A DNA stretch of 64,000 nucleotides from Candidatus Aenigmatarchaeota archaeon (GTDB lineage: Archaea > Aenigmatarchaeota > Aenigmatarchaeia > CG10238-14 > SpSt-28): the NCBI GenBank assembly GCA_038733315.1, contig JAVYPJ010000001.1, positions 318,832 through 382,831 of the forward strand, read 5' to 3'. A model generated the notes under the pieces. It saw only the letters and a list, made by a program, of their open reading frames with translations, was not told the origin of the DNA and made no database searches. The position numbers and the translations under genes are program-made. Positions within the stretch are counted from its first letter, which is position 1, and the number at the start of each line of letters is the position of its first letter. Shown in pieces: positions 3,796 through 59,135 of the stretch.

Positions 3796-4314
3796 ATGGA
3801 AGTTTATGTTTTAAGATTGTTCCATAGAAGGGAAAGGGATAAAAGGGTTACAACTCATTGTGCACTAGTTGCTAGAGCTTTTTTAGCAAAGAAAATGTTT
3901 TATTGTGGAGATAGGGATGAAAGTTTAGAAGATAATATAAAAGACATTAATAAAAGATTTGGTGGTAGTTTTGAAATTGAATACGTAAAGGAATGGAAAA
4001 AATTATTAAAAGATTTTTCTGGAGTAAAAATTCATTTAACTATGTATGGAATACCTTTATTAGATAAATTAGATGAAATTAAGAAAAAAGAAAAAATTTT
4101 AGTTATTATCGGTTCTGAGAAAGTTCCTAGAGAAGTATATGAAATTTCTGATTATAATATTTCGATAACAAATCAGCCGCATTCAGAAATAGCGGCCTTA
4201 GCAATATTTTTGGATAAAATTTTTGAAAGTAAAGAGTTTTTTGTAGAATTTGAAAATGCTAAGATAAAAATAATACCTAGCGAAAGGAATAAAAAAGTTT
4301 TAAAGATTAAATAG
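3796..4314 (+). CDS. tRNA (cytidine56-2'-O)-methyltransferase aTrm56 (SPOUT)
   Basis: N-terminus VLRLFHRRERDKRVTTHCALVARAF matches the archaeal aTrm56 signature. About 170 aa. Confidence 0.7.
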   Translation: MEVYVLRLFHRRERDKRVTTHCALVARAFLAKKMFYCGDRDESLEDNIKDINKRFGGSFEIEYVKEWKKLLKDFSGVKIHLTMYGIPLLDKLDEIKKKEKILVIIGSEKVPREVYEISDYNISITNQPHSEIAALAIFLDKIFESKEFFVEFENAKIKIIPSERNKKVLKIK

Positions 4315-28931: not shown

Positions 28932-29080
28932 GCCGGGGTCGCCTAGCTGGCTATGGCGGCGGACTTGAGTGACAGATTGGCGTGAAACTGATTAGAAAAT
29001 GAAAAATGATGTGGGTGTCGAAATGAGAAAGAAATCCGCTGGGCTTTACGCCCGCGTGGGTTCAAATCCCACCCCCGGCG
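28932..29080 (+). tRNA. tRNA-Ser (anticodon TGA) with 64-nt intron (28970..29033)
   Basis: Type II tRNA. Anticodon stem GCGGA/UCCGC is split by an intron after position 37. Long variable arm UGGGCUUUACGCCCGC. Discriminator G73. Exons near-identical to the second Ser gene. Confidence 0.75.
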
Positions 29081-35501: not shown

Positions 35502-35601
35502 GCCGGGGTGGCGGAGTGGCTTCACGCGGCGGGCTGCAGGGTTTTGCGATTTATGAGCGATGGAAACCCGCAGATCCCGGGTTCAAATCCCGGCCCCGGC
35601 T
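35502..35601 (+). tRNA. tRNA-Cys (anticodon GCA) with 26-nt intron (35540..35565)
   Basis: Acceptor GCCGGGG/CCCCGGC. Discriminator U73. Anticodon stem GCGGG/CCCGC interrupted after position 37. Confidence 0.75.
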
Positions 35602-42663: not shown

Positions 42664-42713
42664 TCTGTACCTAGCCTATTTCTTCATTGTTCAGCTGACC
42701 GTCGTTTCTTCAT
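42664..42713 (-). ncRNA. Candidate box C/D-like sRNA (locus 2) or rpl3 leader element
   Basis: Minus strand reads AUGAAGA-N12-CUGA-ACA-AUGAAGA-N13-CAGA. Same architecture as the locus at 53412..53465. Contains direct repeat TTTCTTCATT and the palindrome TCAGCTGA. Confidence 0.3.
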
Positions 42714-50647: not shown

Positions 50648-50766
50648 TGCGGGGGGTGGGATTTGAACCCACGACGGCTCTACGCCATCGGGTTTCTTAT
50701 CATTTATTCAAAGCTTAAGATTTTATCTTAAGCCCGACGCCCTTGACCAGGCTAGGCGACCCCCGC
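50648..50766 (-). tRNA. tRNA-Leu (anticodon TAA) with ~33-nt intron
   Basis: Type II tRNA with long variable arm. The anticodon stem UCGGG/CCCGA is split after position 37. The intron carries CUUAAG, complementary to the exon's CUUAAG (BHB helix). Confidence 0.75.
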
Positions 50767-52262: not shown

Positions 52263-53414
52263 ATGATTGAAATTGCGTTAGTTGGAAAGCCAAATTCTGG
52301 AAAATCTACATTTTTTAAAGCAGCAACTCTAATGGATGTTAAAATTTCAAATATTCCTTTTACAACATTAAAACCAAACAGAGGAATTGCTTATGTATCA
52401 ACTCAATGTGTTTGTAAAGAATTTAATGTTAAATGCAATCCTCAAGATGGATTTTGCATAGATGGATTAAGATTTATTCCAATAATTCTTTGGGATGTCC
52501 CGGGATTAATTCCAGAGGCTCATAAGGGAAAAGGATTAGGAATAGAATTTTTATCGGCTATAAATCATGTAGATGGAATTGTTTATATTATAGATATTAG
52601 TGGGAAAACTGATTTAGAAGGAAAAGAAATAGAATTTTCAAGTCCAATAGAAGAGGTAAAATTTCTTTTAAATGAATTAATTCAATGGTATAAACAAAAT
52701 ATTCAAAAGCACATTCCGAAATATTATAAAAATGAAAAAGAATTAATAGATATTTTATCTCAAAAACTTAGCGGGTTAAAAATAAAAAGAGAGCAAATAG
52801 AAAAACATATTGATAAAATAAACGATTTGGAAAGTTTCTCTAAGGCATTACTATTCGAAAGCAAAAAAATGATTATTGCTGCGAATAAAATTGATGAGGA
52901 AAAATCTGAAAAAAATTTAAAAGAATTAAAAGAATTTTTAGAAAAAGAAAGTATTAATATAAAGATTGTTGCTTCTAGCGCTTTAAGTGAATTAATTTTA
53001 AGAACCTTAAGTCAAAAAGGGATAATAGAGTATAATTTCAAAAGTTTTGAAATTTTAAGGAAAAATGAATTAACTAGCGAACAAATAAATGCACTAGAAA
53101 GAATTAAAGAATTATTAGAAAAATATAATGGAAGTTTTATATTGAATGTTTTAAATGCTTTAGTTTTTGATGTTATGCAATATAAAGTTGTTTTTCCTGT
53201 TGAAAATGAAAATAAATTAAGCGATAAAAAAGGAAATATTTTACCAAATGCAATTTTATTGGAAAAGGATGCAAAAACAATAGATTTAGCTGAAAAAATT
53301 CATTCTGAAATAGCTAAAAATTTTTTATATGCAATTGAAATTAAAAGCAGAAAAAGAATAGGTAAAGATTATATTTTAAATCATAGAGATGTAATAAAGA
53401 TATATCACGCATAA
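52263..53414 (+). CDS. Obg-family GTPase (Ygr210/YchF-like) with C-terminal TGS-like domain
   Basis: G1 motif VGKPNSGKST, G2 motif TTLKPNRG, G3 motif DVPGL. 383 aa. Confidence 0.75.
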   Translation: MIEIALVGKPNSGKSTFFKAATLMDVKISNIPFTTLKPNRGIAYVSTQCVCKEFNVKCNPQDGFCIDGLRFIPIILWDVPGLIPEAHKGKGLGIEFLSAINHVDGIVYIIDISGKTDLEGKEIEFSSPIEEVKFLLNELIQWYKQNIQKHIPKYYKNEKELIDILSQKLSGLKIKREQIEKHIDKINDLESFSKALLFESKKMIIAANKIDEEKSEKNLKELKEFLEKESINIKIVASSALSELILRTLSQKGIIEYNFKSFEILRKNELTSEQINALERIKELLEKYNGSFILNVLNALVFDVMQYKVVFPVENENKLSDKKGNILPNAILLEKDAKTIDLAEKIHSEIAKNFLYAIEIKSRKRIGKDYILNHRDVIKIYHA

Positions 53415-53465
53415 TCAGAAGTACTCCTTTTCATCATTTTTCAGATGCGGCGGTATTCTTCATAA
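53412..53465 (-). ncRNA. Candidate box C/D sRNA (locus 1)
   Basis: Minus strand: AUGAAGA (C-like) - AUACCGCCGCAU - CUGA (D') - AAA - UGAUGA (C') - AAAGGAGUACUU - CUGA (D). The 12-nt guides and spacer length fit archaeal C/D sRNAs. Confidence 0.4.
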
Positions 53466-53498
53466 AAATTAAATTTTAACAAATTTCAAATTTATTAT

Positions 53499-53637
53499 GC
53501 CGGGGTCGCCTAGCGGATATGGCGCCGGCCTCGAGTTAAATGATAAGCTCTGGGGTAGCTGAAAATAATGATGATTTTGCTATAAGAGAAAGCCGGTGGG
53601 CTTTACGCCCGCGTGGGTTCAAATCCCACCCCCGGCG
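53499..53637 (+). tRNA. tRNA-Ser (anticodon CGA) with 55-nt intron (53536..53590)
   Basis: Acceptor, D-arm, variable arm and T-arm are the same as the tRNA-Ser(TGA) gene at 28932. Anticodon stem CCGGC/GCCGG split after position 37. Discriminator G73. Confidence 0.75.
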
Positions 53638-59038: not shown

Positions 59039-59135
59039 TGGGGCCGCTGGGATTCGAACCCAGGTCAGCGGGTTTCTTCACTTTTCTGAGCTCCATTTCT
59101 GGAGCCCGCCGTCCTGCCATCTAGACGACGGCCCC
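59039..59135 (-). tRNA. tRNA-Trp (anticodon CCA) with ~24-nt intron
   Basis: GGGGCCG acceptor. Anticodon stem GCGGG/CCCGC split after the CUCCAG loop. Intron UGGAGC is complementary to exon GCUCCA (BHB). Confidence 0.75.

Follow-up and report, generated by a model that had tools for sequence, protein, structure and literature searches.

A conserved candidate box C/D guide RNA gene behind a YchF-type GTPase gene in Candidatus Aenigmatarchaeota

A dual-guide box C/D element at the GTPase stop codon

The 64,000-nucleotide stretch of contig JAVYPJ010000001.1 analysed here (assembly GCA_038733315.1, Candidatus Aenigmatarchaeota archaeon; hereafter the window) carries an element on its minus strand that is very probably a genuine, conserved archaeal dual-guide box C/D small RNA (sRNA) gene of ~50-60 nt, running toward the 3′ end of a gene for a YchF-type GTPase. 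A sequence-only reading of the window had proposed an archaeal box C/D sRNA with one mismatch in the C box and 12/3/12 spacing, and this proposal is borne out by chance statistics, by full-length, sub-threshold alignments to Rfam families and by the conservation pattern in seven genomes.

The element occupies 53463..53415 (49 nt) and reads AUGAAGA-12 nt-CUGA-AAA-AUGAUGA-12 nt-CUGA. The C box AUGAAGA (53457..53463) deviates from the consensus RUGAUGA at a single base, U5 to A, and is followed by the 12-nt D′ guide AUACCGCCGCAU (53445..53456), the D′ box CUGA (53441..53444), the D′-C′ loop AAA (53438..53440), the C′ box AUGAUGA (53431..53437), the 12-nt D guide AAAGGAGUACUU (53419..53430) and the D box CUGA (53415..53418). 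The D′ and C′ boxes, which would form the kink-loop (K-loop), are both perfect, and the G-A dinucleotides required for the kink-turn (K-turn) are kept in C (G3-A4) and D. From established K-turn geometry we reason that the U5-to-A change replaces the U.U pair with U2 of the D box by an A-U pair and leaves the sheared G-A pairs in place. The D box directly adjoins 53412-53414, where the minus strand carries the complement of TAA, the stop codon of the GTPase gene, so that the element does not overlap the GTPase open reading frame (ORF; 52263..53414). The earlier extent of 53412-53465 was 2-3 bases generous at each end, with 53412-53414 being the stop complement. Likewise, the C′ box after the 3-nt spacer had been given as UGAUGA; it is perfect, and in full it is the 7-mer AUGAUGA.

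We scanned both strands of the window for RUGAUGA-N10-14-CUGA-N2-9-RUGAUGA-N10-14-CUGA and counted the total mismatches to the boxes. The element was the sole match at ≤2 mismatches, and no match at this level appeared in 300 first-order and 300 third-order Markov sequences of matched composition. At ≤3 mismatches, the random controls gave 0.06-0.10 matches per 64 kb, and the window itself gave three loci. The box pattern is, therefore, confirmed to be far beyond chance.

The sequence-only reading had also suggested a scan with family models of C/D sRNAs. At gathering thresholds, no Rfam family matched the element, which belongs to none of the C/D families tested. At permissive thresholds, about ten archaeal C/D families, including sR5 (RF01304), sR2 (RF01139), sR9, sR12, sR17 and snoPyro_CD (RF00095), aligned end to end on the minus strand, sharing all four boxes, the full length and the correct strand with the element. 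The scores were 17-21 bits against gathering thresholds of 36-45 (best, 20.9 against 40-45). Such sub-threshold scores are expected because these models are guide-specific: they describe Sulfolobus and Pyrococcus guides.

Conservation of the boxes and guide cores in related genomes

The element lies directly behind the GTPase stop codon, on the opposite strand, in seven related contigs whose GTPases are 74-91% identical to that of the window. It is complete in L001 (GTPase 91% identical), L002 (88%), L078 (75%), L080 and L081 (74%) and L082 (78%) and partial in L079; the comparison of boxes and guides covers the window and the six complete loci, and the alignment contains six of them. The four boxes are identical in the window and all six loci, with none of the 22 box bases changed (P ~2e-5 for one comparison). 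Between the boxes, L001 and L002 carry the D′ guide AUGCCGCCGCAU, the loop AUA and the D guide AAAGGAGUACUU, as in the window; L078 carries AUGCCGCCGCAU, UAA and AAUGGAGUACCU; L080 and L081 carry AUGCCGCCGCAU, UUA and GAUGGAGUACCU; and L082 carries AUACCGCCGCAA, UUGA and GAUGGAGUACCU. The guides vary only at their ends. In the D′ guide, position 3 toggles between A and G and position 12 is A in L082, leaving the core CCGCCGCA invariant; the D guide has U or C at position 11 and varies at positions 1 and 3, leaving the core GGAGUAC and the final U invariant. The D′-C′ loop appears unconstrained, as it varies in both sequence and length, so that the spacing among the relatives is 12/3-4/12.

This conservation greatly exceeds that of neutral sites nearby. 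In the nearer relatives, 2 of the 49 positions of the element have changed, as against 17% of the third codon positions of the GTPase gene (P=0.005), and in the deeper relatives 4-6 of 49 have changed, as against 39% (P=1e-6 to 3e-5). The flank upstream of the element cannot be aligned among the relatives. We consider conserved boxes and guide cores, set between a free loop and free flanks, to be the signature of an archaeal guide RNA that would be bound by L7Ae, Nop5 and fibrillarin.

The element stays with the GTPase gene while its other neighbour differs, being a tRNA-Ser gene, a LemA gene or another gene. In the window, a 35-nt A/T-rich spacer (53464..53498) separates it from a divergent, probable tRNA-Ser gene; the sequence of this spacer is not conserved, and other DNA takes its place in L001 and in L080 and L081. 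In L001 (11240-12580), a protein gene lies between the sRNA and tRNA-Ser, and in L080 and L081 genes for LemA and an M48 peptidase are found there. The junction of the sRNA with the GTPase gene is, in short, a stable unit, and that with the tRNA gene is a rearrangement hot spot.

Proposed mechanism and target of the D guide

By analogy with this well-studied family, we infer how the RNA would be transcribed, assembled into a ribonucleoprotein (RNP) and directed to its targets. Its promoter is inferred to lie in the 53464..53498 spacer, where ATAATAAAT is found ~30 nt upstream of the C box, although TATA-like strings are weak promoter evidence in a genome of 73% A+T. A K-turn would arise from the terminal C and D boxes and a K-loop from the internal D′ and C′ pair, L7Ae would bind each motif, and a Nop5 dimer and two fibrillarins would follow. 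Each 12-nt spacer would then pair with a stable RNA, and fibrillarin would 2′-O-methylate the nucleotide opposite the guide base five positions upstream of D or D′ (the N+5 position).

Neither the window nor any locus fetched from the lineage contains ribosomal RNA (rRNA), and the target searches used 16S and 23S alignments of seven archaea and E. coli as stand-ins for the rRNA of the lineage itself. These alignments come from the supplement of Dennis et al. 2015 (PMC4644070).

The D guide (GGAGUACYU, followed directly by CUGA) has the complement AAGUACUCC in the clade of the window and AGGUACUCC in the deeper relatives. The latter agrees with gGUACUcC, the consensus of archaeal 16S at E. coli 673-680; five of the seven reference species offer 8-9 contiguous pairs there. 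In this register, the N+5 partner is the A of GUAC in 16S (A/G)GGUACUCC, aligned with E. coli A676. The most likely target of the D guide is thus the 16S GGUACUCC site; the guide would pair with the 5′ strand of that helix, and we predict 2′-O-methyladenosine (Am) at the equivalent of A676, which gives the assignment a concrete, testable outcome. The U11-to-C change that the guide shows in the deeper relatives agrees with a target G at this site: it is neutral if the target base is G, as a U.G pair becomes C-G, while an A-U pair would be broken. The 16S block containing GGUACUCC is labelled a hot spot by Dennis et al. (PMC4644070).

Other sites were considered for the D guide and rejected. With E. 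coli rRNA as the stand-in, the two guides find only 9-bp runs or 9/12 matches (23S 2435-2443, 23S 2483-2491, the P-loop and the 16S 3′ end). The 23S 2435-2443 site fits in E. coli (AGGUACUCC), but the archaea of the alignment read AAAAG(C/U)UACCCC, and the archaeal CUACCCC at this site is the target addressed by the neighbouring tRNA-intron guide described below. The 16S 3′ end offers 6 contiguous pairs only, and 23S ~430 (AAAUACUCC in Nanoarchaeum equitans) conflicts with the U-to-C change in the guide. A metagenome scan with GCTAARTACTCCTTT..ACCGATAG, a guess at the ~430 target, returned 67 loci, all of them bacterial-type 23S and uninformative for the lineage.

Many of the bacterial 23S sequences (L011-L077) read GCUAAAUACUCCUUUG(U/C)GACCGAUAG at E. 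coli 424-450, and five of them read AAGUACUCCUUU, the exact complement of the D guide of the window. A 12-nt match to some rRNA somewhere is, consequently, no evidence of targeting.

The D′ guide

Being equally conserved, the D′ guide is presumably functional as well, and its target may lie in a part of the RNA of the lineage outside the sequences examined. Its N+5 partner would be the bracketed G in AUGC[G]GCGGUAU. The sequence-only reading had noted a resemblance to a segment of 23S domain V (helix 89), CGACGGCGGU; this is not supported: the resemblance holds in E. coli only, whereas all seven reference archaea read CGACCCCGCGG (CCCCGCGG). The D′ site could instead be the variable 16S stretch just 5′ of GGUACUCC, or the 16S stretch before GGCGGACGG (E. 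coli 101-108).

With the first of these stretches, both guides may even cover one continuous piece of 16S with overlapping sites, the sRNA serving as a strand-specific clamp or chaperone on a single strand of the helix and placing two methyls 8 nt apart; we regard this, and the alternative of a conserved orphan D′ guide that acts on something other than rRNA, as rather unlikely. The complements AUGCGGCGGUA(U) and (A/G)GGUACUCC share GGUA, so that both guides would cover a lineage 16S with the sequence AUGCGGCGGUACUCC. If such an overlap is real, the universal U of GGUAC would find a partner in A as well as in G at position 3 of the D′ guide, the site of the toggle. The reference archaea differ at this stretch, as in Pyrobaculum, which reads GGCCGCCGGUACUCC.

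Points against the assignment and alternative explanations

Several observations weigh against a functional guide RNA with the target proposed here. The region has no terminal stem, and its canonical fold is not significant (z=-1.0). A terminal stem or stable fold is commonly missing in archaeal sRNAs, as these depend on assembly into an RNP and in many cases are circularised (PMC7994747). In relatives whose GTPases are 56-58% identical, the element is gone and a convergent protein gene takes up the position next to the GTPase gene. A tblastn search with protein probes found no fibrillarin, Nop5 or L7Ae gene in the window or in L001-L009, within the ~170 kb of the lineage examined. Fibrillarin and Nop5 serve as universal archaeal single-copy markers (PMC9258230), and the three genes are presumably located elsewhere in the genome.

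The remaining points concern the guides. By chance, each guide should find roughly one rRNA site with a match of 8-9 bp. The core of the D′ complement, UGCGGCGG, has no exact occurrence in the 16S and 23S rRNAs of the seven reference archaea in the alignments. Two weaker candidates for the D′ target failed: the 23S P-loop (CUGGGGCGGCAC) matches at 9/12 positions with a G x G mismatch beside the N+5 base, which is chance level, and 23S ~1270 (CGGCGGUA; CCCGGCGGUAG) leaves the three bases beside D′ unpaired. Neither guide has a target in the 13 transfer RNAs (tRNAs) of the window, in the signal recognition particle (SRP) RNA or in ~170 kb of lineage DNA. The complements of the guides occur in the window, L001, L002 and L078-L082 only on the antisense strand of the gene itself.

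These points leave some room for a genuine K-turn/K-loop RNA that binds L7Ae, and perhaps Nop5 and fibrillarin too, and has one or both guides orphaned, acting mainly as an rRNA-folding chaperone or on a non-rRNA target instead of directing methylation at A676. The D′ core is invariant and yet has no convincing match in the seven reference archaeal rRNAs or the tRNAs at hand, about 28% of Pyrobaculum guides are reported to be orphans, some of them conserved, and a chaperone role for C/D sRNAs has been discussed in the literature. Even so, the D guide matches a 16S site that is conserved, and does so in the canonical register, the substitution next to its core is compatible with compensation, and the gap at D′ may reflect the use of reference rRNAs in place of those of the lineage. 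We think this explanation improbable, though it survives better than those that follow.

We also asked how well the conserved block could be read without a guide RNA, either as a plus-strand cis element of the GTPase transcript (a terminator or a signal in the 3′ untranslated region) or as an antisense RNA that regulates the 3′ end of the GTPase gene and resembles the boxes by accident. The constant position of the element at the GTPase stop codon would suit such a role, and the T-runs on the plus strand (TTTTCATCATTTTTCAG) could terminate archaeal transcription. A terminator, however, needs no four exact box words at 12/3/12 spacing, and it leaves the invariant GC-rich cores of 7-8 nt, with a variable T-rich loop between them, unexplained. 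Moreover, the box pattern has a chance expectation of <1/600 per window and belongs to a delimited sRNA that does not overlap the GTPase ORF. Such a cis-acting or antisense role is very unlikely.

The micro-ORF MKNTAASEK, which the sequence-only reading had offered as an alternative, can be set aside with near certainty: an ATG-initiated frame is present in all homologs, but its ATG is the C box, its stop moves to give a peptide of 8 or 9 residues, no ribosome-binding context is apparent, and the 28 nt past the stop show the same conservation as the supposed coding part, which carries on unchanged over C′, the D guide and the D box. Words containing UGA are frequent in DNA of 27% GC, but a chance cluster of them is effectively refuted, with next to no probability left to it, by the absence of any match in 600 composition-matched simulations and by conservation far above neutral sites in seven genomes.

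Comparison with known archaeal sRNAs

The deviating C box has precedents. AUGAAGA or GUGAAGA boxes occur in sRNAs detected by RNA sequencing (RNA-seq) in N. equitans, Pyrobaculum calidifontis, Ignicoccus hospitalis and M. kandleri, with the same variant as in the element in NeqsR14, PCAsR37/112 and IHOsR95/439 and one or the other of the two boxes in NeqsR14 and NeqsR16 (PMC4644070). A close parallel in overall design is N. equitans, a DPANN archaeon with 26 RNA-seq-detected sRNAs that, like the element, are ~50 nt long, with C/D and C′/D′ boxes, two 12-nt guides, a short loop and no long terminal stem. Among the N. equitans sRNAs covered by the material consulted, none has a guide in common with the element, which comes from another phylum and is known here from its sequence.

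Two known guides resemble the D guide of the element. In the I. hospitalis sR437 D guide (GGGAGUACGG, followed by CGGA), GGAGUAC stands two bases upstream of D, and in the Sulfolobus acidocaldarius sR19 D′ guide (GGAGUACGA, followed by CUGA) it stands two bases upstream of D′, the register in both being that of the element. In both, the N+5 base faces the A of 16S GGU[A]CUCC, which is also the partner predicted for the element. The D′ guide of IHOsR437 addresses 16S ~705 (E. coli numbering), unlike the D′ guide of the element, AURCCGCCGCAU. There is no homology beyond the boxes and the 7-nt core; the likeness is treated as an analogy in targeting. For the D′ guide, the P. calidifontis sR39 D′ guide (CCUAGCGCCGCCGCA, followed by CUGA) has the 9-mer GCCGCCGCA beside D′ in common with the element, in a register off by one base. 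As UGCGGCGGC was not found in the P. calidifontis 16S and 23S rRNAs of the alignment, sR39 gives no lead to the D′ target.

The class of box C/D sRNAs is well known, and a specialist will not be surprised by the finding. Nonetheless, it would add an unannotated and well-supported gene for a methylation-guide RNA to Aenigmatarchaeota, a DPANN phylum in which no C/D sRNAs were reported in the literature searched, and it suggests that RNA-guided modification of rRNA persists in these thermophiles, reduced and host-dependent as they are. It also provides a comparative set of seven genomes in which the ends of the guides drift while the cores stay fixed, and it would account for the conserved intergenic block beside the YchF-type GTPase gene.

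Genomic context

The window has a G+C content of 24-32%, against which its stable RNAs are GC-rich; they comprise an SRP RNA of archaeal type and the products of 13 tRNA genes, of which five are interrupted by long introns. AT-rich DNA with GC-rich stable RNAs is the pattern of a thermophilic archaeon, and the closest relatives of the GTPase encoded at 52263..53414 are found in metagenome-assembled genomes of Candidatus Aenigmatarchaeota from hot springs. An sRNA gene ≤25 nt from a protein gene is a common archaeal context (PMC7994747). On the other side of the sRNA, 35 bases off, the divergent tRNA gene at 53499..53637 has a 59-nt insertion in its anticodon loop, and it is followed by genes for an archaeal-type aspartyl-tRNA synthetase and then GatC and GatA.

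This tRNA gene (plus strand) has a long variable arm, a G discriminator and the anticodon-loop sequence CUCGAG before the insertion, and probably encodes tRNA-Ser(CGA), with its intron at ~53534..53591. Introns, several of them of 25-80 nt, interrupt five of the 13 tRNA genes in the 64 kb (28932-29080, 35502-35601, 50648-50766, 53499-53637 and 59039-59135), and ARAGORN missed or mis-called most of these five.

Other C/D-like guides in the lineage

The tRNA-Ser intron (~55-59 nt) itself contains a C/D-like guide, RUGAUAA - CUCUGGGGUAR - CUGA - variable loop - RUGAUGA - variable 12-15 nt - AGAGAAA, which is conserved in the window and in the six loci with a homologous tRNA-Ser gene (L001 12580-12719, L002 11237-11375, L078 11239-11341, L080 13223-13326, L081 3336-3439 and L082 4146-4249). 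Its GGGGUAG, followed directly by CUGA, stands in the same register as in three D guides (Pyrobaculum sR16, Sulfolobus sR128 and Ignicoccus sR425) directed at 23S CUACCCC(G/A)GG (E. coli 2437-2447, with N+5 at 2441; PMC4644070). The sole well-known C/D RNA nested in an intron is that of tRNA-Trp, which acts on that tRNA and is called unique in a review. A guide that is directed at rRNA, nested in the intron of a tRNA-Ser gene and closed by a degenerate D box would be new and more unusual than the sRNA at 53463..53415 itself.

A second intergenic box C/D sRNA was observed at 42664..42713 on the minus strand, reading AUGAAGA AACGACGGUCAG CUGA ACA AUGAAGA AAUAGGCUAGGUA CAGA, with homologs in L001 (~1075-1125), L002 (~65-115) and L078 (2543-2592), all on the minus strand. 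The core of its D′ guide, CGACGGUCA, is conserved in the relatives, and its D guide is not. The D′ guide forms 10 bp with AUGGCCGUCGUC, a universal segment of 16S (E. coli 1055-1066, with N+5 at C1059) that is marked as a hot spot for other archaea (PMC4644070). The presence of a second sRNA with an AUGAAGA box in the same genomes implies that the lineage uses such guides.

Finally, in L084, whose GTPase is 56% identical to that of the window, a C/D candidate lies just upstream of the GTPase gene at 4148..4196 on the plus strand and reads GUGAUGA UGCUGUCCCAGU GUGA UUG AUGAUCA ACGGGGUAACUA CUGA; the D guide of this candidate has its complement, AGUUACCCCG, in archaeal 23S.

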